Positions 6,136 through 64,000 of a DNA stretch of 64,000 nt are shown one piece after another. The notes below the pieces were generated by a model. It did no database searches, was not told the origin of the DNA, and saw nothing but the letters and a program-made list of their open reading frames with translations. The DNA lies in contig JBMRGM010000035.1 in the NCBI GenBank assembly GCA_052327205.1, positions 13,702,001-13,766,000 on the forward strand. Reading direction: 5' to 3'. Source of the DNA: Somniosus microcephalus (lineage: Eukaryota). The position numbers were made by a program, and so were the translations under genes. Position 1 is the first letter of the stretch, and each line of letters opens with the position of its first letter.

Positions 6136-6470
6136 TGTGGCCCCGTGCGGCCGCTGTTCGGGTTCTTCTATGGGTTTGTATATTTCTTCCCTTATTTCTT
6201 TTTGCTTTGGCTTTTTTTTTTCTAATTTCCTCTGTTTTTTTTTTTCCTTTGGTGTTCTTTTTGGCAGACTTTTCCTTCCTTACTTAATCTAGACTAATCT
6301 AAACTTAAACTTAACTAAACAAAACTAAGCTAACTTAACTAGAAATAAATTTAACTTTAAAACCTTTTAAAACTTGAAATGAAACTTTTTTCCCCACTTT
6401 AGACACTAAAAACACTAAAATCTCAGCAGCCCATCTTCAGCGTGTGTATTCACTCCGTCTGCTCACTCAT

Positions 6471-6898
6471 CTTTGTCTCTTTGTCTTTGTCTCTCTCTCT
6501 CTTGCCATCATTCTCTGTCTCTCTCTTGCCAGCTTTCTCTCTCTCTCTCTCTCGCCTGCTTTCTCTGTCTCTCCAGGTTTCTTTCTCTCACCAGCTTTCT
6601 CTGTCTCTCTCTCTCCAGCTTTCTCTGTCTCTCTCTCTCCAGCTTTCTCTCTCTCTCTCTCGCCAGCTTTCTCTGTCTCTCTCTCCAGCTTTCTCTGTCT
6701 CTCTCTCCAGCTTTCTCTGTCTCTCTCCAGTTTTCTCTGTCTCTCTCTCCAGCTTTCTCTGTCTCTCTCCAGCTTTCTCTCTCTCTCCAGGTTTCTCTGT
6801 CTCTCTCCAGCTTTCTCTGTCTCTCTCCAGCTTTCTCTGTCTCTCTCCAGCTTTCTCTTTCTCTCTCTCCAGCTTTCTCTCTCTCTCTCCAGCTTTCT
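6471..6898. repeat. CT/GA-rich minisatellite (CCAGCTTTCTCTGTCTCTCTCT)n, block 1
   Basis: Direct inspection; 20-26 bp unit. Confidence 0.95.
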
Positions 6899-16121: not shown

Positions 16122-16384
16122 CACAGCCATTTTTTGCTTGGTGCGGGGGGGGGAGGCAGCCATTTTGTGCTTGGTGCAGGGGGAAGCCATTTTGTGCTCG
16201 GTGCGGGGGGGCAGCCATTTTGTGCTTGGTGCGGGGGAGGCAGCCATTTTGTGCTCGGTGCGAGGGGTCAGCCATTTTGTGCTCGGTGCTGGGGGTGGCA
16301 GCCATTTTGTGCTTGGTGCGGGGGGAGGCATCCATTTTGTGCTCGGTGCGGGTGGGCAGCCATTTTGTGCTCGGTGCGGGGGGA
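16122..16384. repeat. About 29-bp tandem repeat, 9 copies, most containing a YY1-type motif (GCAGCCATTTTG / CAAAATGGCTGC)
   Basis: The unit GCAGCCATTTTGTGCTCGGTGCGGGGGG was counted directly. Confidence 0.9.
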
Positions 16385-16491
16385 GTGTTTTACATTGTCT
16401 GTTTGTTTGGACGTGAATTAAAGCAAATTAAAGAGAGTTATGATTTGGAGCCACACCAGGTAAGTGAGTGATTCACACACGGGGCAAAATA

Positions 16492-16970
16492 AAGTTTCAC
16501 CAGCGGTGGGGAGGGAGATTGACAGGGCGGGCAGGATTATACATGGATGGAGGATATGGGGCTCTTATACAGGGGGGGCTGTGGAGTTTCACCAGCGGTG
16601 GGGAGGGAGATTGACAGGGCGGGCAGGATTATACATGGATGGAGATATATGGGGGTCTTATACAGTGGGGGGCTGTGGAGTTTCACCAGCGGTGGGGAGG
16701 GAGATTGACAGGGCGGGGCGATTATACATGGATGGAGATATATGGGGGTCTTATACAGGGGGGGCTGTGGAGTTTCACCAGCGGTGGGGAGGGAGATTGA
16801 CAGGGCGGGCGGGGGGATTATACATGGATGGAGATATATGGGGGTCTTATACAGGGGGGGCTGTGGAGTTTCACCAGCGGTGGGGAGGGAGATTGACAGG
16901 GTGGGCAGGATTATACAGGGATGGAGATATATGGGGGTCTTATATAGGGGGGGCTGTGGAGTTTCACCAA
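16492..16970. repeat. About 93-bp G-rich minisatellite, 5 copies
   Basis: TTTCACCA recurs at 16495, 16587, 16681, 16773, 16869 and 16962. Confidence 0.9.
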
Positions 16971-17279
16971 GGGGGAGGAGGGAAGGAGTTTCACAGAGGG
17001 AGAGAGGTACAGGGGGCGGAGTGTACAGGGAGATGGGGTGAATTATACAGGGGGAGTTATTTTACAGGAGTGGCACACGGGTGGACAATACAGCAGGGGG
17101 GGCGCAGGAGATAAGCGAGGGGAATTCTACAAGTGGGGGGAATTCAGAGGGGGATTAAATGGGGGGGAAATTATAGGTGGAGAGTTTCACGGTGGGGTAA
17201 CTTCACGAGGGTGTAGTACGCAGGGGTATTATGGGGGATTTTAATGGGTTGTATTATAGGGGGGATGTCACGGAGCTAT

Positions 17280-18290
17280 AGTCACAGGGGTATTAGACGG
17301 GGGAGAAGAGAGTATCACGGGTATTAGACAAGGGAGAGAAGAGAGTATCACGGGTACTGGGGGAGAAGAGAGTATCACGGGTATTGGGGGGGAAGAGAGT
17401 ATCACGGGGGTATTAGACGAGCTGGGGGGAAGAGTATCACAGGGGTATTAGACAAGGGAGAGAAGAGAGTATCACAGGGGTATTGGGGGGGAAGAGAGTA
17501 TAAGGGTATTGGGGGGGAAGAGAGTATCACGGGGGTATTAGACGAGCTGGGGGATGAGTATCACGGGGTATTAGACAAGGGAGAGAAGAGAGTATCACAC
17601 GGGTATTGGGGGGGAAGAGAGTATCACGGGTATTGGGGGTAAGAGAGTATCACGGGGGTATGGGGGGGAAGTGTGTATCACGGGTATTAGACGGGGGGAA
17701 GAAGAGTGAATCACAGGGGTATTAGACGAGCTGGGGGAAGAGACTATCACACGGGTATTAGACAAGGGAGAGAAGAGAGTATCACAGGGGTATTAGGGGG
17801 GAAGAGAGTATCACGGGGGTATTAGATGGGGGGAAGAAGAGAGTATCACGGGGGTATTACACGGGGGGAGAAGAGAGTATCACGGGGGTATTAGATGGGG
17901 GGGAAGAAGAGAGTATCACGGGGGTATTAGATGGGGGGAAGAAGAGAGCATCACGGGGGTATTAGACGGGGGGGAGAAGAGAGTATCACGGGCATTAGGC
18001 AAGGGAGAGAAGAGAGTATCACGGGTATTGGGGGGAAAGAGTATCACAGGGGTATTAGACGGGGGATGAAGAAGAGAGTATCACAGGGGTATTAGACAAG
18101 CTGGGGAAGAGAGTATCACGGGTATTAGACGGGGGAGAAGAGAGTATCTATCACGGGTATTAGATGAGCTGGGGAGGAGAAGAGTATCACGGGGGTATTA
18201 GACAGGGGGAAGTGAGTAGCTCAGAGGGGAGAAGAGCGTATCACGGGTATTAAACGGGGGAGAAGAGCGTATCATAGGGGTATTAGATGG
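17280..18290. repeat. Degenerate 25-36-bp purine-rich minisatellite (GAAGAGAGTATCACGGGGGTATTAGACGGGGG)n
   Basis: Direct inspection. Confidence 0.9.
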
Positions 18291-18424
18291 GGGAATTGAG
18301 TAGCGTGGGGGGAAATTCAGTGGGAGGGAATTCGGCGGGAGGGAAATTCGGCGAGGGGGATAATTCGGCGGGGGGGAATTCGGTGGGGCGGAAATTCGGC
18401 GGGGGGGGGGGAATTCAGCGGGGG

Positions 18425-20525
18425 GGACTCACCACTGGAAACACCACTGTTCATAGACACCGGGACGGGGGACTCTACTTGAAACACCACTGTTCATAGA
18501 CACAGGGACAGGGGACGCACTACTGGAAACACCACTGTCCATAGACACCGGGACAGGGGACTCACTACTGGAAACACCACTGTTCATAGACACCGGGACA
18601 GGGGACTCACGACTGGAAACAGCACTGTTCATAGACACCGGGACAGGGGTCTCACTACTGGAAACACCACTGTTCATAGTCACCGGGACAGGGGACTCAC
18701 TACTGGAAACATCACTGTTCATAGACACTGGACAGGGGACTCACTACTGGAAACACCACTGTTCATAGACACCGGGACAGGGGTCTCACTACTGGAAACA
18801 CCGCTGTTCATACACACCGGGACAGTGGACTCACTACTGGAAACACCACTGTTCATAGACACCGGGACATGTGTCTCACTACTGGAAACACCGCTGTTCA
18901 TAGACCCCAGGACATGGGTCTCACTATTGGAAACACCACTGTTCATAGACACCGGGACAGGGGACTCACTACTGGAAACACCACTGTTCATAGACACCGG
19001 GACAGGGGACTCACTACTGGAAACACCACTGTTCCTAGACACCGGGACAGGGGACTCACTACTGGAAACACCACTGTCCATAGACACCGGGACGGGGGAC
19101 TCACTACTGGAAACACCACTGTTCATAGACACCGGGACAGTGGACTCACTACTGGAAACACCACTGTCCATAGACACCGGGACAGGGGACTCACTGCTGG
19201 AAACACCACTGTTCATAGACACCGGGACAGGGGACTCACTGCTGGAAACACCACTGTTCATAGACACCGGGACAGGGGTCTCACTACTGGAAACACCACT
19301 GTTCATAGACACCGGGCAGGGGACTCACTACTGGAAACACCACTGTTCATAGACACCGGGACAGGGGACTCACTACTGGAAACACCACTGTCCATAGACA
19401 CCGGGACATGGAATTCACTACAGGAAACACCACTGTTCATAGACACCGGGACAGGGGTCTCACTACTGGAAACACCACTGTTCATAGACACCGGGACAGG
19501 GGCTCACTACTGGAAACACCACTGTTCATAGACACCGGGACATGGGACTCACTACAGGAAACACCACTGTTCATAGACACCGGGACAGGGGATTCACTGC
19601 TGGAAACACCACTGTTCATAGACACAGGGACAGGGGACTCACTACTGGAAACACCACTGTTCATAGACACCGGGACAGGGGACTCACTACTGGAAACACC
19701 ACTGTTCATAGACACCGGGACAGGGGACTCACTACTGGAAATACCACTGTTCATAGACACCGGGACATGGAATTCACTACAGGAAACACCACTGTTGATA
19801 GACACCGGGACAGTGGACTCACTACTGGAAACACCACTGTTCATAGACACCGGGACAGGGGACTCACTACTGGAAACACCACTGTTCATAGACACCGGGA
19901 CAGTGGACTCACTACTGGAAACACCACTGTTCATAGACACCGGGACAGGGGACTCACTACTGGAAACACCACTGTTCATAGACACCGGGACAGGGGACTC
20001 ACTACTGGAAACACCACTGTCCATAGACACCAGGACATGGAATTCACTACAGGAAACACCACTGTTCATAGACACCGGGACAGTGGACTCACGACTGGAA
20101 ACACCACTGTCCATAGCCACAGGGACAGGGGACTCACTACTGGAAACACCACTGTTCATAGACACCGGGACAGGGGACTCACTACTGGAAACACCACTGT
20201 CCATAGCCACAGGGACAGGGGACTCACTACTGGAAACACCACTGTCCATAGACACAGGGACAGGGGACTCACTACTGGAAACACCACTGTCCATAGACAC
20301 CGGGACAGGGGACTCACTACTGGAAACATCACTGTTCATAGACACCGGGACAGGGGACTCACTATTGGAAACACCACTGTTCATTGACACCGGGACAGGG
20401 GACTCACTACTGGAAACACCACTGTTCATAGACACCGGGACAGGGGACTCACTACTGGAAACACCACTGTTCATAGACACAGGGACATGGGACTCACTAT
20501 TGGAAGCATCCTTGTTCATAGACAC
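18425..20525. repeat. 45-bp minisatellite, about 46 copies (GACTCACTACTGGAAACACCACTGTTCATAGACACCGGGACAGGG)
   Basis: Period of 45 counted from 19681 to 19726. It produces the 15-aa repeat ORFs in the track. Confidence 0.97.
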
Positions 20526-20551
20526 AAGTGCAGGGGAACTCGATGCTGGAA

Positions 20552-21944: not shown

Positions 21945-22876
21945 CTAATGCTGGGAATTCCTCCGATCTTTTCGTTGCTTAACTAATTTAAATATTATTC
22001 TCAGTGGATATTTAATCCCGATCTTCAGCTCCTCTCTGAATTTAGTCTGTGTTACTGCATAAATACACGTGTTTGTGCAGCAGCTCAATAGCAGGAGCAT
22101 ATAGCCGGTCCGATCTGCGATATACATCGGGTCATTGAAGCCTGTTAAATAATAACCGTTTGTAATTCGCAATAATAAGAAATATATCACGTACGTCATC
22201 CTGAGCAGTATGAAGTTTCCGGATATAGCGAAGAGTAGAATAATGGATTTCCTTCGGTTCTCCATCTCCTGATCATTGTGATTGGCATCACTCTTGCTGC
22301 TCCTCAGCCTCCTGCGGACTCTACTGGCCGCCAAAATGTGTCCTACGGTCAGAGCATTGAGCAGCAGCATCAGGAATATTGGGAGCAGTGGGTTGAAACA
22401 GCGATCAATCCAGCTAAATACTACCCACGCAGTTACAGTGTAATACTCTAGTTTTGAATCACAGCCCCATGGCACGTTGTCGATTGTATACCAGGGTTTA
22501 AGTGGAAAGTACCAGGGAATGTTTTTCAAACAGAACAGCAGACACACGGTTCCTATAACCACGGCTGCAGATTTCTCGGTGCAATATTTAGTCCTCAGGC
22601 TCTGGCAACAAATGGTAACAAAACGATCAAAAGTGAAAGCGACTGTTAACCAGACAGAAATATCTGTGACTGCACTGAGCAGGACAGCGTGGAAAGCACA
22701 CACAGGTGTGATGAACAGGAATGTAGTCGGGATATAATATTGATTAATCCGAACTAGTATCACATCAGTGATAATGACCAGTAGATCCGCCGCCGCCATG
22801 GCCACCAGATAGCGGGTGATACACCTGGATAGACCGCACTTTCCCCGGGACAGGATCACAATCGTCATCACGTTCG
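21945..22876 (-). CDS. Class A GPCR, GPR139/GPR142-like, coding exon 2 (end of TM1 to C-terminus)
   Basis: ORF 21945-22871 has 7TM motifs: LVAMAAADLL, TVAFTFDRFVTICC, PWGC, PLLP, RRKSIILLFAISGNF, CCTNTCIY, TKFREEL. The acceptor tttacag| is at 22877. Confidence 0.92.
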
Positions 22877-23665
22877 CTGTAAATGGGAAACAGACAAAAA
22901 CAGGGAATCAGCCTTCAGGTTACAGCAAGGGAGCCAGTTTCACAGTATTTGATGTGAAATGTACTTTACTGCAGGATCTGGGAATGGGAACTGAACTCGT
23001 TACCGCTGCTAGGATTGGGCAGTTGACAACAATTTTAACATAAAATTGCAATGTTCAGTATAAGAGAGTCTGGAGTAAATAAGTGAAAATAAACGCCTCC
23101 AGCAAAGAGTAAAACATGAACAAAATGGATTCTCTTGGAATTTCCTCAGAGCTGCTCCTCTTCCACCATCACAGCTTCATCGGAAGTGCAAGGAATCCTG
23201 ACGAGTTCCGAGTAAATTACCGGACGTTAAATTGTATGAGCAAATGGACAGCCAGATAATGAGTTATAATTAATAGCAACAAGTAGCAGTTCAGTGACGG
23301 AAGAACGAATGAAAACAAAACGAAAGAAAAGTGATTGAAAATAAGTACTGAATGGTCAGTTATAAATTGGGAGATAAATGATGGGTGAGGAGCAGTGAGA
23401 ATGAAGCCGGCCCGAAATGCGGTAAATAATAAATGGGGAGCACCGAAAGTGAGATCATCGCCGGGTTTGCATCCGTGGCCAGGAGAGGGGAGCAGATACC
23501 AGGCGGGGGTCAGAACAGGCTCGTATTTGTCAGGTTGGATTCTCAGACTGGGGGGAATGACTAAAAACTGTTGAAAAGACAAATGTCAAACACCATGTTA
23601 CAAAGCGACTTGTTGTGGGTCAACTCGACCAGTTTCTGTTTACAAACCACCAGATGGACGTTTCA

Positions 23666-30639: not shown

Positions 30640-33440
30640 AGTCAGCCAGAGGGGGACTGAGGGTCATGACAGGGAAATGGGATCAGAGAGAGGGGGCACG
30701 AGGGTCAACAGCAGGGAAATGGGGCCAGAGAGAGGGGGAGTGGGTCAGCAGCAGATAAATGGGGTCAGAGAGAGGGGGAAGATGGTCAGCAGCAGATGAA
30801 TGGGGACAGAAAGAGCGGGAAGAGGGTCAGCAGCAGGTAAATGGGGTCAGAGTGAGGGGGGGAAAGGGTCAGCAGCAGGTAAAAGGGGTCAGAGAGAGGG
30901 GGAAGAGGGTCAGCAGTAGGTAAGTGGGGCCAGTGTGACGGGGAAGAGGATCAGCCGCAGGTAAAGGGGATCAGAGAGAGTGGAAGAGGGACAGCAGCAG
31001 GTAAATGGGGTCAGAGAGAGGGGGAGGAAGGTCAGAAGCAGGCAAATGGGGTCAGAGAGAGGGGGAAGAGGGTCATCAGCAGGTAAATGGGGTCAGAGAG
31101 AGGAGGGAGGAAGGTCAGCAGCAGGTAAATGGGGTCAGAGCGAGGAGGAGGAAGGTCAGAAGCAGGTGAATGGGGTCAGAGAGAGGGGGAAGAGGGTCAG
31201 CAGCAGGTGAATGGGGTCAGAGAGAGGGGGAAGAGGGTCGGCAGCCGGTAAATGGGGTCAGAGAGAGGGGGAAGAGGGTCAGCAGCAGGTAAATGGGGTC
31301 AGTGTGAGGGGGAAGAGGGTCAGCAGCAGGTAAATGTTGTCAGAGAGAGGGGGAAGAGGGTCAGCAGCAGGTAAAAGCGTCAGAGAGAGTGGGAAGAGGG
31401 TCAGCAGCAGGTAAATGGGGTCAGAGAGAGCGGGAAGAGGGTCAGCAGCAGGTAAATGGGGTCAGAGAGAGCGGGAAGAGGGTCAGCAGCAGGTAAATGG
31501 AGTCAAGGAGAGGGGGGAAGAGGGTCATCAGCAGGTAAATGGGGTCAGGGAGAGCGGGAAGAGGGTCAGCAGCAGGTAAATGGAGTCAAGGAGAGGGGGA
31601 AGAGGGTCAGCAGCAGGTAAATGGGGTCAGAGAGAGGGGGAAGAGGGTCAGCAGCGGGTAAATGGGGCCAGAGAGAGGAGGAAGAGGGTCAGCAGCAGAT
31701 AAATGGGGTCAGAGAGAGGGGGAAAGAGGGTCAGCAGCAGGAAAATGGGATCAGAGAGAGGGGGAAGAAGGTCAGCAGCAGGTAAATGGGTAAGAGAGAG
31801 GGGGAAGAGGGTCAACAGCAGGTAAATGGGGTGAGTGTGAGGGGGAAGAGGGTCAGCAGCAGGTAAATGGGTCAGAGAGAGTGGGAAGAGGGTCAGCAGC
31901 AGGTAAATGGGGTCAGAGAGAGTGGGAAGAGGGTCAGCAGCAGGTAAATGGGGTCAGAGAGAGCGGGAAGAGGGTCATCAGCAGGTAAATGGGGTCAGAG
32001 AGAGCGGGAAGAGGGTCAGCAGCAAGTAATTGGAGTCAAGGAGAGGGGGAAGAGGATCAGCAGCAGGCAAATGGGGTCAGAGAGAGGGGGAAGAATGCCA
32101 GCAGCAGGTAAATGTGGTCAGAGAGGGGGGAAGAGGGTCAGCAGCAGGTAAATGGGGTCAGAGAGAGCGGCAAGAGTGTCAGCAGCAGGTAAATGGGGCA
32201 GAGAGAGGGGCAAAAGCGTCAGCAGCAGTTAAAAGGGGTCAGAGAGAGAGGGGGAAGAGGGGCAGCAGCAGGTAATTGCTGTCAGACAGAGGGGGGAAGT
32301 CGACCAGCAGCAGGTAAATGGGGCAGAGAGCGGGGGGAGATGGTCAGCAGCAGGTAAATGGGGCCAAGAGATGGGGGAAGAGGGTCAGCAGAATGTAAAT
32401 GGCGTCAAAGGGAGGGGCAAGAGGATCAGCAGCAGGGAAATGGGGCCAGAGAGAGGGAGAAGAGGGTCAGCAGCAGGTAAATGGGTTCAGACAGAGGGGG
32501 AAGAGGTTCAGCAGCAGGTAAATGGGGCCAGGGAGAGGGGCAATGTGCTGAGCAGCAGGTAAATGGGGTCAGAGAGAGGGGGAAGAGGGTCAGCAGCAGG
32601 TAAATGGGGCCAGAGAGAGGGGGGAGGAGGGTCAGCAGCATTCAATTGGGGTCAGTGTGAGGGAGAAAGAGGGTCAGCAGCAGGGAAATGTGTCAGAGAG
32701 ATGTGGAGAGGGTCAGCAGCAGGTAAATGGGTCAGAGACGGGGGAAGAGGGTCAGCAGCAGGTAAATGAGGACAGTGTGAGGGTAAAGAGGGTCAGCAGC
32801 AGCAAAATGGGGTCAGTGAGAGGGGGGAGAGGGTCAGCAGTGGGGAAATCTGGTCAAAGAGAGGGGGAAGAGGATCAGCAGCAGGTTAATTGGCTCAGAG
32901 AGAGGGGGAAGAGGGTCAGCAGCAGGTAAATGGGGTCAGAGAGAGGGGGAAGAGGGTCAGCAGCAGGTAAATGGGGTCAGAGAGAGGGGGAAGAGCGTCA
33001 GCAGCAGGTAAATGGGGTCAGAGAGAGCCGGAAGAGGGACAGCAGCAGGTAAATGGGGACAGAGAGAAGGGGAAGCAGGTCAGCAGCAGGTCAAAGTGGT
33101 CAGAGAGAGGGGGAAGAGGGTCAGCAGCAGGTAAATGTGGTCAGAGAGAGGGGGAAAGAGGGTCAGCAGCAGGTAAATGGGGCCAGAGAGAGGAGGAAGA
33201 GGGTCAGCAGCAGGTAAATGGGGTCAGAGAGAGGGGGAAGAGGGTCAGCAGCAAGTAAATGGGTCAGAGAGAGGGGGAAGAGGGTCAGCAGCAGGTAAAT
33301 GGGGTCAGTGTGAGGGAGAAGAGTGTCAGCAGCAGGTAAATGGGGTCAGAGAGAGGGGGAAGAGGGTCAGCAGCAGGTAAATGGGGTCAGTGTGAGGGGG
33401 AAGAGGGTCAGCAGCAGGTAAATGTGTCAGAGAGAGGGGA
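30640..33440. repeat. 41-bp G-rich minisatellite, roughly 65-70 copies (GAGGGTCAGCAGCAGGTAAATGGGGTCAGAGAGAGGGGGAA)
   Basis: Unit counted directly. Confidence 0.97.
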
Positions 33441-35970: not shown

Positions 35971-36204
35971 GGGATCTGTAACACGTTCTGATTGTCTGAC
36001 AGTTTATAGAGTTCAGACCAGTGTAACAGCCAACACAAAACCCAATGAATCTGTGAAACTTCTATTACTTAAAAATCCACAAGAAGTTACAAGTAATTAC
36101 CAGAATACAAGCTGTACTCAATACATGTAATTATCACAAGCAAGTATCTAAAATCATTTACTTTAAGCTCAGGTGATTATAAGCAAAACCACATACGTAC
36201 AACA

Positions 36205-37460
36205 CCTGGTTGGGTATTGGAGCTGGGGGGCATTGGGTGAATCTTTGGGTATTGGAGTTGGGGGATCTGTGGGTGAATGTTTGGGTATTGGAGCCGGGGG
36301 GCAGTGGGTGAATGGTTGTGTATTGGAGCAGGGGGGCAGTGGGTGAATGGCAGGGTATTAGAGCCGGGGGAGGCAGTTGTTGAATGGTTGTGTATTAGAG
36401 CCGGGGGGCAGTGGGTGAATGGTTGGGTATTGGAGTCGGGGGTCAGTGGCTGAATGGTTGGGTATTGGAGCCGGGGGGCAGTGGGTGAATGGTTTGGTAT
36501 TGGAGCCGGGGGGCAGTGGGTGAATGGTTGGGTATTGGAGCTGGGAGCAGTGGGTGAATGGTTGGGCACTGGAGCCTGGGAGCAGAGGGTGAATGGTTGG
36601 GTATTGGAGCCGGGGGGCAGTGGGTTAATGGTTGGGTATTGGAGCCGGGGGGCAGTGGGTGAATGGTAGGGTATTGGAGCCGGGGGCAGTGGGTGAATGG
36701 TTGGGTATTGGAGCCAGGGGGCAGTGGGTGAATGGTTGGGTATTGGAGCCGGGGGCAGTGGGTGAATGGTTGGGTACTGGAGCTGAGGGTGCAGTGGGAG
36801 AATGGTTGGGTATTGGAGCTGAGGGGGCAGTGGGTGAATGGTTGGGTACTGGAGCTGAGGGGGCAGTGTGTGAATGGTTGGGTATTGGTACCCGTGGGCA
36901 GTGGTTGAATGCTTGGGTACTGGAGGCGGGGGTCAGTGGGTGAATAGTTGGGTACTGGGGCCGGGTTTCAGTGGGTTAATGGTTGAGTATTGGAGCCGGG
37001 GAGCAGTGGGTGAATGTTTGGGTATTGGTACCGAGGGGCAGTGGTTGACTGCTTGGGTACTGGAGCCAGGGGTCACGTCTGGTGCAGTGGGTGAATGTTT
37101 GAGTATTGGAGCCGAGCGGCGGGCGTGGTGCAGTGGGGGGATGGTTGAGTATTGGAGCTGAGGGGCAATGGTTGGGTATTGGGGCTGGGGGCAATGGTTG
37201 GTCATTGGAGCCGGGGGTAATGGTTGGGTATTGTCGCTGTGAGGGAGCAGTGGCTATATATTGGAGCCGGGGGCAATGGTTGGGTATTGTGGCTGTGGTG
37301 GGAACAGTGGTTGGTTATTGGAGCCGGGGGCAATGGTTGTGTATTGGAGCCGGGGGCAATGGTTGTGTATTGGAGCTGGGGCAATGGTTGGGTATTGGAG
37401 CTCGGGGCAGTGGTTGGGTATTGTAGCTGTGCTGGGAACAGTGGTTGGGTATTGAGCTGG
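36205..37460. repeat. About 35-bp G-rich minisatellite (GGGTATTGGAGCCGGGGGGCAGTGGGTGAATGGTT) shifting to a ~26-bp unit after about 37150
   Basis: Direct inspection. Confidence 0.93.
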
Positions 37461-44742: not shown

Positions 44743-44827
44743 ACCAGGGTGGCCGAGTGGTTAAGGCGTTGGACTTAAGATCCAATAGACGGTGTGTTTG
44801 CTTGGGTTCGAACCCCACTCCTTGGTA
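44743..44827 (+). tRNA. tRNA-Leu(TAA), probably degenerate
   Basis: ACCAGGGTGGCCGAGTGGTTAAGGCGTTGGACTTAAGATCCAAT..GGGTTCGAACCCCACTCCTTGGTA. A and B boxes and the anticodon arm are intact; the variable arm and stems have mismatches. Confidence 0.8.
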
Positions 44828-45879: not shown

Positions 45880-46538
45880 TGTTGTGGAATATTTTAAACC
45901 AACACTTGACACAAGGTTTTTGCATCGATAATCAAGTTGTCTTTATTACACCAGTGGGGAGACAATCTGCTCTGTCTTAGCCAGACTTCTCCAAATTGGT
46001 ACAGCAAGCCCTACATTTTTATACATTACAACATATATGTCCAGCTCATTCAAAATTCATTCCTACCACCTGATTGGTCCTTGACCCGTATACATATTCA
46101 CTGATTGGTTGCCTATACTGCGTTATATTAAAGTACCGCCTTTATTATCGGAAAAGTACATGTCCATTATCCCCCAAGCTGTTGTTGCACCTATGACCTT
46201 TGTTTATGCCAGATGGGGTCTCATCAACATTGCACTTCTGACTCATTGTCCTCCTTTCCTGCCTCTCTAGGCCTCTTTACTTCCAACTCATTGTTTTACT
46301 TTCCTGCCAGAACAGAGCTTACATCCTCTAGGCCTCTTATGGTTTCCCCCTCCGACTATTTGAAATTGTCTCTTAGTGACAAAGTAAGCAGTTCTACAAC
46401 TACTGCTTAGGTTATCTCAACTGCCAGTTCAGCAATTTAGAAAAAGCTTACTACTGCAAAGACCTATTAGATTATTCTCTTTATTACACCATTCAGTGAA
46501 GCTGCCAGCGATGTCAGTTTAACTCATTCCCCACTGCA
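45880..46538 (-). repeat. ERV 3' LTR (659 bp), with PPT AAAAAGGGGGAT at 46539-46550
   Basis: Direct repeat of 53207-53863, roughly 10% diverged by eye. Confidence 0.92.
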
Positions 46539-46569
46539 ATCCCCCTTTTTGGTACTTGGGCACTACCCA

Positions 46570-49045
46570 AGTTAAACAACATGTATAAGCATTGCTGTGC
46601 CTCCTGCCCCATGTGGTGATCAGGCGCTGGCTCGGGAGGCCCTGCATACCCATCATGTCTAGAGCAAACTTGTTTTTTCCAGCACTTTCCGCTTCGCTTT
46701 AGCTCTTTGTTGGTCCGTTTCTTGTTACAAGCGGTGCATGCTGCTATTCCCCATCATATAGCCATGAATAACTGTACTATCACTATTATATATGGGAAAT
46801 GATGCGGATCCATGGGTGTATGTTGACATTCATTCCCCAATCCCACAGCTTCTCATACCACGGGAACTCCTGTAGCTCTATCTCTATGACCCTTTCTAAT
46901 TCCCCAAGGTCCCTTGCAGCACTATGTATTGTTTCACCATCTTACTTAAATCCTCTTTCAATTCTTGCAGATCCTCTTGCAGGTGGGGTATTGCGGTCCC
47001 TTCTGGCACTTCATAATTGACCAACGCTTTCTTTAGACTATCTGGCACATTTAGCTTTATCTCCTCCCTTGAATGTACATACACCAGTCTGGTGTGTCCA
47101 ATTGTGACAGGGACCTTTGGCGTAAATCAGAAGTTAGGCATTGTGATTGCACATACAAGGTTACTATATTGGTACTCAGCCTCTGTGGTGGCTGTACAAT
47201 ACTCCCCTTCACCTTTATATCCCGAGCGGGTGTGATGGTGATCAACATGTGATAAGTCCAACACACACTCTCTGTCTTATTATAGGCGCACTCATCCATA
47301 GGGCCTTCTCCTACTGGATGTGGGCACATCGTAAGCGTGCCTTTCCTGTGGCATCCGTTTAGGGAGACTCCTCTCATAGTATCATTCTTCCTGATGGCAT
47401 AGGTATCAATTGAATAGTATTGGAGGTATGTCTCACCCCTCACTATGCCTATGTTTGTTAACTGGTTCTGTGGGTATGCAGCCATGTCTAGTCCCACCAC
47501 TGGCATCAGGAGTACCATGCCTATCATTGCTGTCACTTCTGCTTTACATTTTCGTATCACTGGATATACTCTGGTCATCCCTTTGAGGGTACAAGCAGTC
47601 AGAGGGCCTGAATTCTGGCTCAGGCCACAGAGCTGTGGGCTGTTAATCCAGTCTGGTACCTCGCCTCGCTGTATCTGTGCCAGATTATGTTTAACTGTCC
47701 AGTGATCCATTGGCCATAGGCTTAACACAAGCCTCTTCCTACCCCGTCTTTTGCCTGTTCCTCATCTCTATGGTTTGGTTTGTTGATAATGCTAGCATAT
47801 TCCTCTGTAACCTTGATTCCCTTGAGTAACTTCCTTATCGTATGTCCTCCCAACTCTGATCCTTGTCGAACCAAACCAGTTTCCTTCTCTAAAATCTGTT
47901 GTATTACCCTTTGTATTCGTTCCACACTACTTTGGACACCTTGTATATCTAGGGCATTAATGAATGATGTCCCCGTATGAGCAGCACGGTGGCATAGTGG
48001 TTAGCACTGTTGCCTCATAGCGCCAGGGACCTGGGTTCGAATCCAGTCTCGGGCGACTGTCTGTGTGGAGTTTGCACATTCTCCCTGTGTTTGCGTGGGT
48101 TTACTCCAGGTGCTCTGGTTTCCTCCCACAGTCCAAAGATGTGTGGGTTAGGTTGATTGGCTATGATAAATTGATCCTTAGTGTTAGGGGGATTAAATAC
48201 GTGGGGACAGAGTGGGATATGTGTTGGTTGTGGGGATCGGGTGGGATATGTGTCGGTGCAGGCTCGATGGGCCGAAATGGCCTCTATCTGCACTGTGCGG
48301 TTTCTGTGTTTATTCCCATGGGCATATCGGTTACTAAGCTCCTCTTAATCCTTTGGTGAAATGCAGCATGTCCCCTAACGTCAGTCGCCCCTGTCACATC
48401 AGCAGCTTGGTTAGTTACCTTCTTTATCATATATGCATAGAATTTTCTAGATTTAGTAAACCTTTCAGAATATCCTGGCCATTGTAACATGGTTAAGTTC
48501 ATTAGTACCGGTACAATTTCGTGTCTCGCACTATCATACAATTGTTTTCCCTCAGTGAATATCACCAGTCCATTTTCAGGCCAAGGCGTCCATTTCGGAC
48601 ACCTCCGTTCTTCAGGTATTGATGTGATTGGGGGTGTTGTTGCTTCTAGGGTTAACCCTTGTGGTGTGGTCCTTGTTGTTGTTGGTTGAGGTGTTGTAAT
48701 GCCGTGTGCAAAAGTCCATCTTATACCATTTTCTGCGCAGCTCAGGACATATGCTCCCCCTAATTGAGCCAACACCTGCCAGTGTCTATTACATTCTACC
48801 ATATTGCTGGCATTTTTTCATTCTACAGGGTCCGCATGGTTGTTGATCCAAGTTCACTCAGGTACCGTTACACCTGTAACATAATTTTCCTTGTTTTTCA
48901 CACTCCTAACTGAGTGATATGATGAAGCCTCCATGAAGTCGCCATTATGGGATCTTAACCTGCAGTCCATTTCTTCCAGCCCGTTATTTGTACTTATAAA
49001 TGCTGTCATCAGGGTAGTTATGACAATCCATCTTACGGGATCCAT
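46570..49045 (-). pseudogene. env: ERV env with F-protein-like architecture, disrupted by stops, frameshifts and a SINE
   Basis: Signal-like MDPVRWIVITTLMTAFIS, furin site RIKR (48341-48352), fusion peptide SLVTDMPMGINTGTSFINALDI, heptad region, Cys-rich block, PWYEKLWDW and a TM helix at about 46740-46820. Confidence 0.8.
47979..48308 (+). mobile_element. HE1-type tRNA-derived V-SINE inserted in env
   Basis: tRNA head (GGTGGCATAGTGG, GGTTCGAATCC), V core CTGTGTGGAGTTTGCACATTCTCCC..GGTTTCCTCCCACAGTCCAAAGA, and a CR1-like tail. Confidence 0.88.
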
Positions 49046-49139
49046 GTTTATCTGTAATTTAAACAGAGCTCTGGCTGTCAGCAGAGGTAGCTCATCTCCA
49101 GTGTTTATTCCATTGTTTCTGTGGGACTTAAGATCAGAT

Positions 49140-51250
49140 GGGTTATTGTTGTACCGGTTTAGTTGTGTCCAATGTTTCCATCTATCCTTTCCCCTCATAT
49201 GTATACATGCGCACATATCGCTGGTCATGATAACCTCAAATGTTCTGGTCCATCGAGGTGAGACTCCCGATCTCTCTGGCAATATTTTAATAACTACCTG
49301 CTCGCCCACCTTGGGTAGGGGCTCCGAGGACCCCTACTTTTGTGTATTTTTATCCCTGATGTCTTGTTGTTCTTTAACTTCTTGTTAGAGCTCTTTCAAT
49401 TGATTATCCAATGTTTGTATGTATTTCATAATTTTATCATTTAATGGACCTAGTCCCTCGCTACCAGATGCTAATACTTCCGGCAGACACATTGCTTGTC
49501 CACTCATGAGTTCATATGGTGTCAGTCCGGTCATCCTGTTTGAGTTGGCTCTCAGCCTCATCAGGATACATGGAAGGACATCCACCCACCCATGTCCAGT
49601 TTCGGCTATGGCCTTGCTTAAGGCTTTTTTCAGGGTTCTGTCCATTCGCTCTACCATGCCTGAGCTTTGCGGATGGTAGGGGACATGCAACTTCTGTCTT
49701 ACTCCCAGTAACTTACAAGTTTCTTTCATTACCTTTCCCGTAAAGTGGGTACCTTGGTCTGAACCTATTTGTAACAGGATCCCCATCTCGGTATCACGTC
49801 GTATGCAAATATTCGGGCCACAGTCTGAGCACTACAGCAGGGAATGCTTCCACCCACCTTTTAAACTGGTCTATGATCACTAAACAGTATTTCTTCCCTC
49901 TACTGTTAGGTAGGGTTCCAGTAAAGTTTAATTGGAGGTTTTCCCAGTGGCCTTTCTGTCGTGGCTGGTGGGCTATTCTAACCTTTATGGGCCTACCTGG
50001 GTTGTGTTGTCCACAGATGATGCAGCGTCTGCAGTATCTTGCCACATCTTTTCCCATTCCACTCCACCACTAATCTATACTTAGCCTACCTATCATGCCA
50101 TTCCGCCCCCCATGGTCTGGCTCATGGTACATTTTCAACAAGTTCCCCTGTGACCCTTTTTCCATATTCCATCTGTACCTTTGGCTGTGCCTCTCTTGAT
50201 CCACTGCTCCTGCTCCTCCATTTCGGTCTCCTCTTGGATTTTTTAATGTTCACTTCTTCTGCTGTTATTCTACCTGCAGCTATTGGTGTAGGGATCTCTG
50301 TGTCCGCTGCTATTCTTGCTGCCTGATCAGCTAGCATATTTCCTTTTTGTTGCTCACTCACTACCTTGCGGTGTGCCTTTATTTTAATCACTGCTCCCTC
50401 TTCTGCTCCTTTTACCACTTCTACTAGTTCTCTCACTCCTTCCTCATGCTGTATTTCTCCTCCTCCGGAGGTTACATATCCTCTCATATTCCACGCTGTC
50501 ATATAATCATTCACTACCCCAAACGCATATCTACTGTCTGTGTATATATTTACTCGTTTTCCTTTTGCCAATTTCAATGCTTCCGTGAGAGTCACGAGTT
50601 CTTATCTGTCTGGTTTACCTACCGGCCAAATTGGTGAGTTTATGGTTGCTGTGGTTTCTTTTAACACTCCCTGTTTCAGTAACTCGGTTATTATCCTGAA
50701 TACGGCCTCTTTGGCTGCTGGTTTTATTGGGTATTGTCTATGCGCCTTGTGCTCCGGTCCGGGTATCATGATAGGGTTAATTGTAGTTAGTCCACAGTCC
50801 TATTTAGAGGTGACCCATACTCGTTCCACCACCTGGCATAGGACTCCCCATATTCCGTATTGTTCCCAATCCCTTTACTACCGATCTTTACCATATAACT
50901 GGCCATAATCCTGGCTTCAAATTTATCATCAATTACGCGCTTTCGTAATATTGTCTTATTTCATACATCTGTCACATGGTCCAGTTCACTTGTTTTATCC
51001 ACTCCTAAGACTGTTCCCTCTGGGTTATCACATGCCCATAACTGGAATGGGAGAAAAATTCCTCCTAGTTCCAATAATTGTGTCCCGTTTTTGTAAGCGC
51101 GATTGCTCTTCCCGCCCACTCCTTGTATCATTATACAGGTTTTGAGGTTTGTGTGTGCGGGAGGTCCAAATTGGTTATAGACACTGATGCCCCTGTGTCA
51201 ACGAACATATAGCACTGCTGGCCCCATAACAGTGCTGTTAGCTCCAGACG
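49140..51250 (-). pseudogene. pol: ERV pro-pol remnant: protease, RT N-terminus, RNase H, integrase
   Basis: FVDTGASVS at about 51195. RQYPIKP..INSPIWPVGKPD is joined directly to ELVTLTEAL..NIYTDSRYAFG..KIKAH..GNMLAD. Integrase motifs: CIICGQH, SDQGTHF, HPQSSGMVER. Confidence 0.88.
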
Positions 51251-51283
51251 GGGATCGGTGCCTGTACCGAGGGCCGATGACAC

Positions 51284-52666
51284 CTAGCGGGACTGTGACA
51301 GGGTTTGGATTAGTTCGATCAATTGAATCTTATTCATATTGGCCTCACCCGTTATCTGCTCGCTACACGCTGCCTCTTGTTGTCTTGAGCCTTGACCTTC
51401 CTTCCCCCCTCCCTTGGACCAAGAGTCTCGCTGTTCGTGTCCAGATTTATTACAGTTTTTACATCTCCTTCCTGTGTCTTTCCTAGTTAATGTGCAATGA
51501 TAACTCTTGTGCCCAAGCCTATTGCATTTTATACAGACTTCCATCTCCTTTACTGCAGCTATCTGCTCCTCCAAGGCAGCCACCTTAACTTTCTGCTGGT
51601 TGTCTACCTCAGTCGCCCATCTGATCAATTCATCAAAGGTCTGTATGGTGACCAATCCAATTTGTACTATGGCCTGATGGGCACGACTCAGCCCTTGTAC
51701 ATTTTCAAAAATGCCAAATTGTCTCGTTGTGGTGCTATTATACTGGAGTGGGCTACAAAACAATCCACTTCCGTTCTCCATAATCATGGGTTGACACCCC
51801 TTTCCCCTGACTAATTCCCATGACTAGTCCCCAGTTTACTGGTACTAATCCTAAAACTTGTGTAACAGCGGTCCTAAAAGCTGTATAATCCACATCTCAT
51901 TGCTGATGTACAGGGGCTACATCTTGACACCATGTCCCCTCCCTATATTGTTGAGGTAATTGACCCAACATATCTTCGCTCATTTTTGCCCTCACTAGTC
52001 CATCAACATCCCGGTTGTGGAAGTTGTGACATATTCCCATTTCTCTTAGTTTCTGCCAGAATATGGCAATACTCTGTCGGAGCTTTAGTTCCGGCAGAAT
52101 TTGAAGCAACTTTAATTTATCTCCTGTGGAGAAAGATACATAAGTGATTTATACCTGAACTGCTACTGCTGGGATCGCTACGGTGCCTGGGGGTGCCCCT
52201 ACAAGTATAGGCACCGCCGGGGTGACCGGAATAAATTCCACCTTAATAGGTGCCACTTTTATGTCGTCATATGGGGGCGAGATTTCCCCATCATTATAGT
52301 CGGGGTCATGTTCAGCAACTTTTCGGCTCAGCGCATCCCAGTCTATCCTGTCCTCCTCTACTCTTTTCACCTCAGATGGCGCTACAGGAGCTGTTGCCAT
52401 TATGGGTACTTGGGTACAATTTTGGCACCCGTTTTTGGTCCAAACTCGAGCACAGCTGCTCAACTCATAATATGCATGAGCCACTAAAATGATGGCCCTT
52501 TCTTCCTTTAATTTTGTTTCTTTAGCCCACCATTCTCTTTGTTTGGCCGGTGGGTCGTTCGGTTGCCAATCGTTATCAACAATTTTGTCATTGAATCTTT
52601 TATTTTTGTCCATTAAATAGTGTATCAGCGACCCCACCGAGCCCCCTCGAGTTTTTCACTTTCCAT
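51284..52666 (-). pseudogene. gag: ERV gag remnant with SPPY late-domain-like motif and two zinc knuckles
   Basis: ISPPYDD; CIKCNRLGHKSYHC and the degenerate CKNCNKSGHEQRDS. Confidence 0.8.
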
Positions 52667-52679
52667 GGTTAATTGTTGT

Positions 52680-52990
52680 CAGCGGTATGTCCCATCCTTT
52701 ACTCTCGCAACCGCAGTTGTCAGAGGTACCATCCTTGCTTTACTCTCACAGTGTGAGACGGTACTTGCAACCGCAGTTGTCAGAGGTAGCTCCCTTATTT
52801 ACTCTCGCAGGGTGAGTCCATACTTGCAACAATTTTGTTCGGGTAATTTGTTGTCAGATGTATGCTTAGCACTACTTGCAACTGGAGTTGTCAGAGGTAT
52901 GCTTAAACTTTCTGCATTGCTTGTAACTCGAGTTGTCAGAGGTACGCTTTAGACTTTTACTCCAAAGTTAACGCACTACTTGCAACACAT
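52680..52990. repeat. Tandem repeats in the ERV leader (ACTTGCAACCGCAGTTGTCAGAGGTA)
   Basis: GTTGTCAG recurs about 6 times between the PBS and gag. Confidence 0.7.
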
Positions 52991-53187
52991 ACCACGCCTA
53001 AAGTTCTGTGTATTTCACCTGAACCCCAAGACCGCTTGACTTATTGATTCAAATCTTTTAGTTCTTTGATTCCAAAGGGGGCGGTGGACAAGAGACGGTG
53101 TTGCCTTGCCCTAACTGTACGTGGTTTTTCAAAATAACTCACATTTTTGCTCAGCTTCACTCGTCCATGCCACCCATCCATGTGGGA

Positions 53188-53204
53188 TCCTGTTCGTGAT
53201 GCCA
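53188..53204 (-). promoter_or_regulatory. Primer-binding site, tRNA-Ser(CGA) type
   Basis: TGGCATCACGAACAGGA lies 2 nt from the LTR and is one mismatch from the complement of the vertebrate tRNA-Ser(CGA) 3' end (TCCTGTTCGTGACGCCA). Confidence 0.8.
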
Positions 53205-53206
53205 AT

Positions 53207-53863
53207 TGCTGTGGAGTATTTTAAACCAACACTCGACACAAGGTTTTCGGATCGATAATCAATCATCTTTATTACACTGGTGGGGAGACAATCTGCTCTG
53301 TCATAGCCAGACTTCACCAAATTGGTGCAGCAAACACTACATTTTTATACATTAAAACATATATGTCCAGCTCGGTCAGAATTCATTCCTGCCACCTGAT
53401 TGGATCTTGGCCCGTATGCATCTTCACTGATTGGTTGCCTATGCTGCGTTACATTAATGTACCACTTTTATTATCGCAAACCTATATGTCCGTTATCCCC
53501 CAAGCTATTGTTGCACCTATGACCTTTGTTTATGCCAGATAGGGTCTCATCAGCATTGTACTTCTGACTCATTGTCCTCCATTCCTGCCTCTGTAGGTCT
53601 CTTTACTTCCAACTCATTATTTTACTTTCCTGCCAGAACAGAACTTACATCCTCTAGGCCTCTTATGGTTTCCACATCCGACTATTTCCAATTGTCTCTA
53701 ATTGACACAGTATGCAGTTCTAACACTACTGCTTAGGTTGTCTCAACTGCCAGTTCAGCACTTTAGAAAAAGCTTACTACTGCAAATACCTATTAGATTT
53801 TTTCTTTATTACACCATTCAGTAAAACTGCCAGCGGTGTCAGTTTAACTCGTCCCCCACTGCA
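53207..53863 (-). repeat. ERV 5' LTR (657 bp)
   Basis: Direct repeat of 45880-46538. On the minus strand it contains two CCAAT boxes, TATAAAAA and AATAAA. Confidence 0.92.
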
Positions 53864-60638: not shown

Positions 60639-61219
60639 ATTTATCCTTTACTTATACAGAACGATTTTATCTAGATTTTTTGGAGGTAATTTTTCGGCCC
60701 AGTTGATTTATTCCTTCCAGAAAACGAAGCCCACTTCCATCCAAGGCAGGTTTGTTTCATTGGTTGTAAGTATGTATTGTGTTGGCAGTCAGCAGAACAG
60801 GGCCAGTGGAATCAATCCATTGTGCTTCAAACTTGCAGTTCCACATCATAAATTATCAGATGGGGCCCATATCATTCCACAGCAATCTCCAGTGGCTTTG
60901 GAAGAAGGCTAATGTAAACTAGCATATTTACTTCAGGACTTAAAGACACTCAATTAAAGTCTTTTTTTAGCAATCAATAACCTGTGATCCTTTTAAATAT
61001 ATTTAGATGTGCCCATGTTAGATACACGTGTATTTGCGAGTTGCAAATGTGTTGAATGTAAATGATTTTGCGTCTCTGTTATTTACTAATATAGTTAGAT
61101 GTGTCTGTATTATTATTTTTGTATTGGGTGGGGGATCTGTGTCAGTAATAAATGTAATAAATGTATATCTGAGCGCTGCAAATGTCCAGTCCGACACCAT
61201 TCTATCTTCCCATTGTCCC

Positions 61220-62670
61220 TGTTATGTTCATTAATAAATAGACATTCTTATTATGAATACAGCTAGCTTTTGCTAGTTACTTTATTGAGCTCATGTGGAC
61301 TGGTACAGTATCTGTAGAGGCTTCGATCTTGACTGCTGCCTTGTGGGTAGCCTAGTGCCTCATGGGTAATGTAGTCTTAATATATATACAGCTGAGTAGT
61401 GTAGTCTTATATACAGCTCTACACAGCTCTACGGCTCCACCTAGTGTCCACTATAGAATGACATGTTATTGATCGTTACATCCCCCTTTCTTTGAGGTTT
61501 AACAAAATCAATATCAATCAACTTTCAAGAAAACAATAAAGATAATATCAGTAACACTTTTGTTAGTGCTCTATAAACATAAACATTTTCAAAACAGTCA
61601 GCCCTATTCAAAGCTTTACATTGTACTCAAAGATTAAGTCTATCAGGCTCTTTTACTTCACGTGTGGATCTTCTCAACACGGGTAAGTCTGATGTGTCTT
61701 CATGACATTGTTCTGGAGGTGAATGACAAGATGCAGTTGCGGCATTCTCATCAATCTGGTCTTGAATAGATCGAGGTCTCCTTGCAATCTTTGCTTGGAG
61801 AGGGTTTCAGTGTTTCCTTCACTCTTCATGCCATAACTCTCAATGGAGTCAATGCGCTCTCGAAAAACTGCTGGCAGCTGGATCCCATCATACAGCATAG
61901 TCCTCTCAGCAGCCTCGGCTAATGGAACACCAAAGATTGGCCTGAGGGGAGAATGAGTATCCTCCGGAACTGCTTCCTGCTCTGGTGCAGGCTTCTTCTT
62001 TTTCTTTTTCTCTTTCCACTGCTTAACAACATCTGCTGCGGTTATATCTTTGGACTTTTTCTCCTTGTGTTTTCCTCTTTGTGCTTTTCTTCCTTTGGCT
62101 TCTCTTTGAACTTAAAGTATTTTTCCTTCTTCTTGGAGAAACTAGGCTTTTTGAAGACATGGATACCTTTCGCCTTTTCATCCTTGATGGGCTCTCTGCT
62201 TCATCACCTGAGTCATCTGGTCTGCTTATGGCACAGTTTATACGGTAGTCTCTCTTGACCAGTTCTAAGTCTTCACAAGCTTTGTCACCTAGTATCGAAT
62301 CAAGTCGTTCAGCCACAACAGAAAACAAGAGATGATGCACTTTGTCTTTGACTGTCACTTTAAGTCTGCATACACCTAAGCTATCTATGTTCTGTCCATC
62401 ATAGCTCTTCAGTAGTACTGACTTTTTCTGTATTTTCGGCTTTTCTTTCTTATTTTTTATGTCACTCATACTGATTAAGTTTGCTTTTGCCCGAGTGTCC
62501 AGTATCAATGTAACTAATGCTCCATTTATCTGCAGTGGGATCATCCATTTGTCCACTTTTACTGCATTGACTTTATGTTCAGCATTGTACATTTCTGAGG
62601 GCTGCACATTTTCTGTATTTTTTTTGATATCGTCACATGACACCATTCCTACAAAAAATGTCTCACTTAA
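61220..62670 (-). mobile_element. Internally deleted Gypsy LTR retrotransposon (protease, captured host segment, integrase tail, PPT, 3' LTR)
   Basis: Protease LILDTRAKANLIS..SILGDKACEDLELVKR; ORF end LRRSTREVKEPDRLNL*; PPT AAGAAAGGGGGA at 61481-61492; TG..CA LTR at about 61220-61480. Confidence 0.8.
61815..62217 (-). pseudogene. RALBP1: Captured RALBP1 (RLIP76) coding fragment, two frameshifts
   Basis: Translates DDSGDEAESPSRMKR/KGIHVFKKPSFSKKKEKYFKFKEKPKEEKHKEE/HKEKKSKDITAADVVKQWKEKKKKKKP..LRPIFGVPLAEAAERTMLYDGIQLPAVFRERIDSIESYGMKSEG. This matches the recalled vertebrate RALBP1 N-terminal basic region and the start of its RhoGAP domain. Confidence 0.9.
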
Positions 62671-62672
62671 AT

Positions 62673-64000
62673 CATAAGAACATAAGAAATAGGAGCAGGA
62701 GTAGGCCAATCGGCCCCTCGAGCCTGCTCCGCCATTCAATAAGTAATGGCTGATCTGATCCTAACCGCCAATCCACTATCACAGAAACATCTCCTGAATC
62801 TAACAGAATTAGACACACGAAATAGGAGCAGTATCAGGCTACACGGCCCCTGGGCCCGCTCCGCGACCCACAGGGCCATGACCGATCCGAACCTAGACTC
62901 ATGTCCAAATTCCTGCCCGCTCCACGTAACCCTTAATTCCCTTTACTTCTAGGAAACTGTCTATTTCTGTTTTAAATTTATGTAATGATGTAGCTTCTAC
63001 AGCTTTTTGGGGCAGCATATTCCATGGACCTACCACCGTCTGAGTGAAGTAGTTCCTCCACATCTCAGTTTTGAAAGAGCAGCCCCTTATTCTAAGACTA
63101 TGCCCCCTAGTTCTAGTTTCACCCATCATCGGCAACATCTTCCCCGCATCCACCCGATCCACCCCCTTCACAATCTTATATGTTTCAATAAGATCGCCTC
63201 TCATTCTTCTGAACTCCAATGAGTAGAGTCCCAATCTACTCAACCTCTCCTCATATGTCCATCCTCTCATCCCCGGGATTAACCGAGTGAACCTTCTTTG
63301 TACTGGCTCGAGAGCAAGTATGTCCTTTCTTAAGTATGGACACCAAAACTGTACGCAGTATTCCAGGTGCGGTCTCACCAATACCTTGTACAACTGAAGC
63401 AATACATCCCTATTTTTATATTCTATTCCCCTAGCAATGAAATCCAACATTCCATTGGCCTTCTTAATCCTTTGCTGCACCTGCATACTAACCTTTTGAG
63501 TTTCGTGCATCAGGACCCCCAGATCCCTTTGTACTTCAGCACTTTCCAGTTTCTTGCCATTAAGATAATAACATGCTCTACGATTTTTCCTGCCAAAGTG
63601 CATAACCTCACACTTTCCAGTATTGTATTCCATCTGCCAAATCTCTGCCCACTTACTTAGCCTGTCGATGTCCCCTTGCAGGTTGTTTATGTCCTCCTCA
63701 ATCACTACTTTCCCTCCCATCTTAGTATCATCTGCAAACTTTGATATGTTACACTCGGTCCCCTCCTCCAAATCGTTAATATAGATTGTAAAGAGCTGGG
63801 GCCCCAGCACTGACCCCTGCGGAACACCACTAGTTACTGATTGCTAGTCTGCGAATGAACCATTTAACCCAACTCTCTGCCTTCTGTTAGATAGCCAATC
63901 CTCTATCCATGCCAGAATATTACCCTCAATCCCGTGGTTTTTTATCTTAAGCAATAATCTTTTGTGTGGCACCTTGTCAAATGCCTTTTGGAATTCTAAA
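62673..64000 (-). mobile_element. Young CR1 LINE 3' portion (RT C-terminus intact), runs off the window
   Basis: ORF 62899-63810 LGPQLFTIYINDL..KFADD..LVRPHLEYCVQFW; tail TTCTTATGTTCTTATG near 62675. Confidence 0.92.

Follow-up and report, generated by a model that had tools for sequence, protein, structure and literature searches.

The window, a 64,000-nucleotide stretch of Somniosus microcephalus contig C35, contains near its end half of a 2.6 kb Gypsy retrotransposon, namely its 3′ half, which lies on the minus strand. Read inward from its 3′ end, the element is bounded by a 5 bp target-site duplication (GGGAC; positions 61215–61219), followed by a 261 bp 3′ LTR with TG...CA termini (61220–61480), a polypurine tract seen in the sequence (61481–61493), and the last ∼46 codons of integrase together with a 3′ untranslated region (61494–61769). 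Beyond these lie two adjoining fragments of the host gene RALBP1, namely 55 nt of its last coding exon (61768–61822) and most of its second coding exon (61816–62212, corresponding to residues ∼92–229), and then the end of gag and an aspartyl protease (62213–62674). The initial annotation had proposed that RALBP1 stands here, in the same orientation, in place of the reverse transcriptase (RT), RNase H and integrase core; every part of that arrangement was located where it had been placed, on the minus strand. The element is then split by a CR1-type LINE (62675–64000, minus strand), which carries an RT-like ORF (62899–63843) and continues beyond the window to C35:13768781. The 5′ LTR and the remainder of gag lie outside the window, past this 4.1 kb insertion, and the 5′ LTR, whose presence beyond the LINE had been anticipated, was found at C35:13769639–13769899. 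Aligned over 259 columns, the two LTRs show 10 differences, and GGGAC flanks both ends of the element. The Ty3/Gypsy features found thus comprise paired TG...CA LTRs, gag with a CCHC knuckle, an aspartyl protease and a polypurine tract; a stretch that starts with TGG, to which no tRNA was matched, follows the 5′ LTR as a candidate primer-binding site.

The protease region (62213–62674) shares 68–70% identity with Gypsy proteins from fishes of the carp family, a likeness that is high for such a distance and that may possibly reflect horizontal transfer. In the window copy the DTG motif of the protease reads DTR, and its Pfam gag-asp_proteas match (E = 2.5e-4) falls below the cut-off, which another natural copy exceeds. 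The identification of the adjoining ∼400 bp as RALBP1 was borne out: this part of the window copy matches PDB 2mbg (RalA-binding protein 1; E = 1.6e-16), the captured exon is 93% identical to the host genome's own RALBP1 exon, and the exon piece of another copy is 85–87% identical to shark and ray RALBP1, a likeness that by itself points to a cartilaginous fish as the host. Among the best 120 of 362 matches, no database protein spans both halves of the chimera (coverage ≤54%).

An ORF had also been described as reading without a break from protease into RALBP1. This ORF (62023–62760) indeed contains no stop codon from the protease into the RALBP1 segment, but its 5′ end lies within the CR1 tail, and frameshifts close to 62166 and 62070 carry it out of the RALBP1 frame after ∼13 codons. 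The window copy, being split by the LINE and frameshifted, is broken, and the in-frame fusion of protease to RALBP1 is a property of the family rather than of this copy. In the family chimera the second-exon piece is in frame with gag-protease. The chimeric ORF then reads the last-exon piece outside the RALBP1 frame and the tail of integrase outside the integrase frame, and terminates about 50 codons later.

The parental RALBP1 gene was recognized on contig C7 as the sole match to the Ral-binding domain in the genome (one of 51 candidates scored) and comprises nine coding exons (C7:32292493–32333446). Comparison with this locus, which the initial annotation had recommended, identified two exon pieces in the cargo. 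The sequence from the second coding exon (C7:32331042–32331455), most of which is present, had been recognized as RALBP1; the piece of the last exon (C7:32292492–32292546), which stops immediately before the RALBP1 stop codon, had been overlooked. The two source pieces are separated by 38.5 kb in DNA and by about 1.25 kb in the mRNA, and the cargo, 447 nt in total, replaces about 2.5 kb of pol rather than interrupting it. The second-exon piece spans a lysine-rich region and the start of the RhoGAP domain, which is truncated after about 40 residues; the cargo lacks the Ral-binding domain of RALBP1 and most of its GAP domain. One residue encoded by this exon is Leu in the host gene but Ile in the element, and Ile is also found in four of the five other sharks and rays compared. 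This replacement, one of those fixed in the family, probably arose in the host, with the element probably keeping the older host state, and the site is useful for dating the capture.

The element had been suggested to be non-autonomous and possibly amplified as a family; this reading is supported by the number of its junctions across the genome, by separate target duplications, and by the pol-bearing partners and microhomologies described below. A 29-mer spanning the inner joint (allowing ≤2 mismatches) gave 1,428 + 1,438 = 2,866 matches, and its reversed control gave none. An exact 22-mer from the protease end gave 7,627 + 73 = 7,700 matches, 2,352 of which run on into RALBP1; the cargo form makes up about 30% of the Gypsy family. 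For closer analysis we sampled 74 of the 2,866 cargo-bearing copies and compared them with 28 copies that bear pol. Contig C1 supplied 71 of the 74; 70 were the first exact matches to the junction on that contig, a manner of sampling that is biased toward younger copies, and the other four came from the similarity search that gave the closest matches of the window copy. An LTR pair was present in 38 of 44 full-length cargo copies, and 35 of these had callable ends; a 5 bp target duplication with no more than one mismatch flanked all but one of the 35 (34 copies, 32 of them with exact duplications). Median LTR divergence was 1.8% for cargo copies versus 2.4% for pol-bearing copies (16 of the 28, with one spurious pair; P = 0.12). 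Given their own target duplications and the similar LTR divergence, the cargo copies represent separate integrations of an age similar to that of their helpers.

The pol-bearing partner is about 4.6 kb in length, encodes gag-pol only (no env was seen), and has the domain order PR-RT-RH-IN (Pfam RVT_1, RT_RNaseH, Integrase_H2C2 and rve). The existence of such partners, together with the microhomology at the joints described below, agrees with a host-gene-carrying element that is non-autonomous, and we infer that the cargo form depends on these partners as helpers. No other deletion-derivative family was found among the 28 pol-bearing copies, so the notion that short elements spread better is not a full explanation for the success of this one. 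Odd continuations of the protease end had suggested that families with other cargoes might exist; this was rejected upon inspection of 20 such loci, of which 15 proved to be of the pol type (some with small deletions, and one interrupted later), four were of the RALBP1 type, and one was interrupted by an inverted fragment of the family itself.

Inspection of the joints offers a view of how the capture occurred. Adjoining segments overlap by 5 nt between protease and second exon, by 7 nt between the second-exon and last-exon pieces, and by 2 nt between last exon and integrase, the last of these being the weakest of the three; under a simple random model, summed microhomology of at least 14 nt has a probability of about 3e-5. 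The part of RALBP1 that was skipped contains the joining 7-mer at three places, two of them within introns, and it is the exonic occurrence that was used. The 5-mer at the protease/exon joint is present in only some helpers (one of eight compared) and is frequent in the wider lists of continuations. These microhomologies at all three joints point to template switching on an mRNA. Because the cargo contains no exon–exon splice junction, we infer its origin from RNA on the basis of the two exonic landings.

A different source of the cargo, in which a LINE made a RALBP1 retrocopy inside a Gypsy copy, was one of the alternatives raised with the initial annotation, and we considered it together with assembly error. 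CR1-type LINEs are abundant, and one lies within the window copy itself; however, the inspected boundaries of the cargo show neither a poly(A) tract nor a flanking duplication of its own, and pol has been replaced and not interrupted. Likewise, an assembly error is at odds with thousands of copies that have separate target duplications, and with the presence of the junctions in contigs under three organism labels (which may not be distinct species) and in raw RNA reads. Copy number, joints, target duplications and junction reads refute a retrocopy or artefact, to which we attach a negligible probability.

A cargo-bearing copy of the family is also found at C7:32357713–32361072, on the same strand as RALBP1 and 24–28 kb 5′ of its start codon. 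It has its own target duplication and is apparently nested in another Gypsy element. As a candidate ancestor of the capture it was ruled out, being an ordinary derived member of the family with its own target duplication and family alleles. The chance of one family copy lying this near to RALBP1 is about 3%, and the 150 kb examined around the gene contained no relic of the family other than this copy.

Microhomology is also a mark of DNA repair, and the capture might instead have taken place at the level of DNA, with a break in a Gypsy element repaired from genomic RALBP1 (or from a read-through transcript of an upstream copy) and the product then transposed. The lack of a splice junction in the cargo and the location of a family copy upstream of RALBP1 on the same strand would both be in keeping with such an event. 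Nevertheless, both captured pieces are purely exonic despite the distance that separates them in the genome, and where the joining 7-mer recurs in introns, at two places, it went unused; the upstream copy is a derived member whose proximity is expected by chance about 3% of the time, and the 150 kb examined hold no other relic. We consider capture at the DNA level to be very unlikely.

We therefore regard it as highly probable that the element is a non-autonomous Gypsy retrotransposon whose pol was mostly replaced by RALBP1, likely in one template-switch capture, and that it was likely spread by helpers. In the mechanism that we propose, RALBP1 mRNA would have been packaged together with element RNA, and reverse transcriptase would have jumped from integrase onto the last exon of RALBP1, then across about 1.25 kb of the same mRNA to the second exon, and finally back to protease, whether in one round or in successive rounds. 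The chimera would have retained its LTRs, polypurine tract, gag and protease, with RT and integrase supplied in trans, and later co-packaging with helper RNAs would have exchanged gag-pro repeatedly. The window copy is a broken insertion of this element that was multiplied afterwards by segmental duplication.

Patterns of variation within the family bear upon the proposed exchange with helpers. In the gag-pro region of cargo copies, 55 of 1,220 non-CpG sites are polymorphic (minor allele ≥10%), versus 1 of 420 such sites in the cargo (P = 1e-6), and both alleles at 50 of the 55 gag-pro polymorphisms also occur in pol-bearing copies. A tree of gag-pro sequences mixes the two types, and its well-supported branches require three or more changes of type; it was built from 52 of 72 rows (35 with cargo, 17 with pol) after removal of rows without anchors. 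A near-invariant cargo, joined to gag-pro polymorphisms that are common to pol-bearing copies, indicates one capture that helpers likely spread and with which it repeatedly recombined. The simplest reading of these sequence patterns is that a single cassette was recombined repeatedly onto helper gag-pro by co-packaging.

The window copy has itself been multiplied in a different manner. Of its 36 closest matches (from 40 candidates scored), 35 are on C35, at 1.2–28.1 Mb and including the window copy itself, and one is on contig C417. Among 30 loci compared, 28 have in common both the LINE and the sequence that flanks the element outside its LTR, and the other two have this flank in common. The possibility that the family is confined to C35 was considered and ruled out, since the copies on that contig arose by segmental duplication, as their common flanks and common CR1 insertion show. 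In the three copies followed further, the duplicated block is 21–30 kb in length and adjoins 1.6 kb tandem arrays of two intron-containing tRNA-like genes, for which the anticodon calls are unstable. On C35 the segment covers window positions 42299–64000 (with no strand assigned) and C35:13766001–13774000, is composed of mixed repeats, is duplicated at 95–99% identity, and carries the broken Gypsy copy as a passenger. Its appearance is that of a tRNA-array cassette that was dispersed and amplified recently. The broken window copy was thus multiplied a second time, about 35-fold, by segmental duplication. The initial annotation foresaw neither this origin of the near-identical neighbors nor the full scale of the family.

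The same duplicated segment includes, at 45940–53565, a broken endogenous retrovirus-like element with a pair of 90%-identical terminal repeats, RNase H and weak integrase matches, and pieces of an env-like ORF. Other features of the window are an intact single-exon ORF for a rhodopsin-family receptor of 320 amino acids (21945–22907, minus strand; Pfam 7tm_1, E = 1.6e-16), a lone tRNA-Leu(TAA)-like gene (44743–44827, plus strand), a 2.7 kb tandem duplication near 6900–11250, and minisatellite arrays at 6400–9950, 16150–20550, 30650–33000 and 36190–37430 with units of about 10, 28, 35, 41, 45 and 93 bp.

Transcription of the chimera was examined in two RNA sequencing runs chosen by species label (X7 and X8, in which 24% and 31% of the reads were examined, respectively). 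DNA contigs under the organism label of these runs show only 0–1 differences from the host RALBP1 intron, so the RNA comes from the same or a very close species. Mapping of RNA-seq reads had been recommended, and reads cross both junctions in both runs: those that depart from the host exon into element sequence number 129 and 129 at the two junctions in X7, and 113 and 92 in X8. At four family-fixed sites, sense reads with the element allele account for 249/252, 212/214, 143/143 and 158/164 in X7, and for 86/97, 61/74, 79/91 and 57/63 in X8. Element-type reads thus outnumber host-type reads over the RALBP1 exon in both samples; the host-only end of the exon has a depth of 1 and 3, exon ends being under-covered. 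Several variants are present at 10–20% among the RNA reads, which suggests that more than one locus is transcribed.

The X7 signal is unlike DNA carry-over, since about 90% of it is sense. In X8, roughly 25–60% of reads (depending on the bin) are from the opposite strand and may correspond to antisense RNA or to DNA. Within X8, 77 opposite-strand molecules start at one place in the 3′ region of the element, a strong signal that may represent an antisense transcript from the element's 3′ end.

We then asked what the sequences indicate about selection on the cargo. Changes private to single copies, relative to the host exon, give a dN/dS of 1.06, or 1.00 without CpG sites (71 of the 74 copies), and the decay of the cargo after insertion is neutral. 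Selection on the cargo is accordingly unsupported by these private changes; at the level of the family no purifying selection was found, a scale at which a single selected copy among 2,866 could escape. Frameshift-free versions, for which a search had been advised, were found: the exon piece has no stop or frameshift in 48 of 71 copies, and is open from the ATG in 5 of the 37 copies with a callable ATG. Stops and frameshifts common to two or more copies are often in homopolymer runs or CpG codons. The differences from the host exon that are family-wide amount to two replacement and three silent changes and the in-frame loss of one 15 nt repeat; set against private changes (172 replacement, 39 silent), the fixed counts give P = 0.052. 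Variants shared between copies have a dN/dS of 0.6–0.8 in the cargo, at very few sites, and of about 0.3–0.4 in gag-pro, where they are largely inherited from helpers. None of seven sister pairs of cargo copies is marked by a stop or frameshift, and among the indels common to several copies the only one to take in a sister pair preserves the frame (67 of 73 copies), which leaves room for selection on the reading frame during replication.

These observations can be set against a reading in which the origin is the same and the cargo aided the spread of the element, through membrane or RNA binding, particle assembly, or a host-like RNA that is less silenced. One cassette is found in about 30% of the family and across many gag-pro backgrounds; it is fused in frame, with most exon pieces intact and some open from the ATG, and the comparison of fixed with private changes gives P = 0.052. 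The captured exon piece is also basic (34 K/R in 137 residues) and covers a region of RALBP1 described in a review as polybasic and possibly membrane-binding, along with the R-Ras site (PMC8124665). However, private changes are neutral, some of the fixed differences come from the host side (such as Leu in the host, with Ile in four of five others), an in-frame fusion is expected by chance in one case of three, the RhoGAP domain is cut short, neither the last-exon piece nor the integrase remnant is in frame, and the reduced dN/dS of shared variants rests on very few sites. On balance a useful cargo appears unlikely. Since short derivatives without pol often spread well, the cargo is most likely a passenger.

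Most known cases in which an LTR element has captured a gene are low-copy, maize Bs1 among them. Defective retroviruses that transduce oncogenes carry gag–onc fusions in which pol has been replaced, and likely depend upon helpers. The RALBP1 chimera is like them in that a fragment of a host signaling gene lies in frame downstream of gag and replaces pol. Unlike them, it is a Gypsy element, with no env seen in its partner, that spread within the germ line; its cargo lacks the Ral-binding domain and most of the GAP domain, and it is known from sequence and transcripts.

LTR-mediated retrocopies in Drosophila, as presented in the sections of Tan et al. (2016) that deal with them, occupy 18 sites for nine retrocopies (two of them at multiple sites), with a median microsimilarity of 6 bp, more than two switches being possible and re-mobilization as a non-autonomous element as well (PMC5131818). 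Like them, the RALBP1 chimera has an internal ORF partly replaced by partial mRNA, both LTRs kept, and microsimilarity at the joints; it is likewise co-transcribed mostly in the sense direction and has transposed further, as seen from its junction reads and dispersed copies. It differs in being present in about 2,900 copies rather than at a few sites, and in joining two pieces of one gene, of which the first continues the gag-protease frame. Cartilaginous fish are not among the species that the same sections name. HERV-K/FAM8A1, which is cited there (PMC5131818), stands beside the gag–onc retroviruses as a comparison for the fused host fragment. In the account of maize Bs1 in the relevant part of PMC13317346, an LTR element carries pieces of three host genes in a chimeric ORF and became a new gene. 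The RALBP1 chimera also contains several host gene pieces within the chimeric ORF of an LTR element; unlike Bs1, it exists in thousands of copies with a cargo that decays neutrally.

For a large shark genome, the main text of a recent preprint describes, in its section on retrogenes, single-exon copies near LINEs or LTRs (bioRxiv 10.1101/2024.09.09.611499). The chimera resembles those retrogenes in that a host coding sequence was copied via RNA in a repeat-rich shark genome; in that main text the terms RALBP1, Gypsy and non-autonomous elements have no occurrences. We found no literature on RALBP1 capture in shark LTR retrotransposons or on RALBP1 retrocopies, in a search that left most subscription journals outside its reach. 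The mechanism, LTR-mediated retroposition, is already known, and the scale is unusual. What differs from the known cases is that scale, the use of two pieces that lie far apart in a single mRNA, the in-frame gag-protease fusion, and transcripts that swamp the parental exon.

In this lineage what was likely a single capture of an exon of an essential signaling gene has given rise to about 2,900 copies, with the parent, the helper and all three junctions still readable. Because element alleles dominate the sense reads over the RALBP1 exon (about 86–99% in the two RNA samples), estimates of RALBP1 expression and copy number in this lineage would be badly wrong. A stronger interpretation is that this was a genome-wide germ-line event similar to oncogene capture, in which the RALBP1 segment gave the element an edge over its helpers and/or the copies now act on RALBP1 itself, by way of small RNAs or a dominant-negative fragment; we hold this to be possible, though doubtful. 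Were it true, sense transcripts of the chimera, which exceed host RALBP1 mRNA over the exon, together with antisense RNA, would regulate the host gene, an outcome that we put forward only tentatively. The family provides a natural data set for asking why derivatives without pol spread, at what rate they recombine with their helpers (the cargo marking one lineage), and what happens to a host gene when the silencing of an element covers one of its exons.
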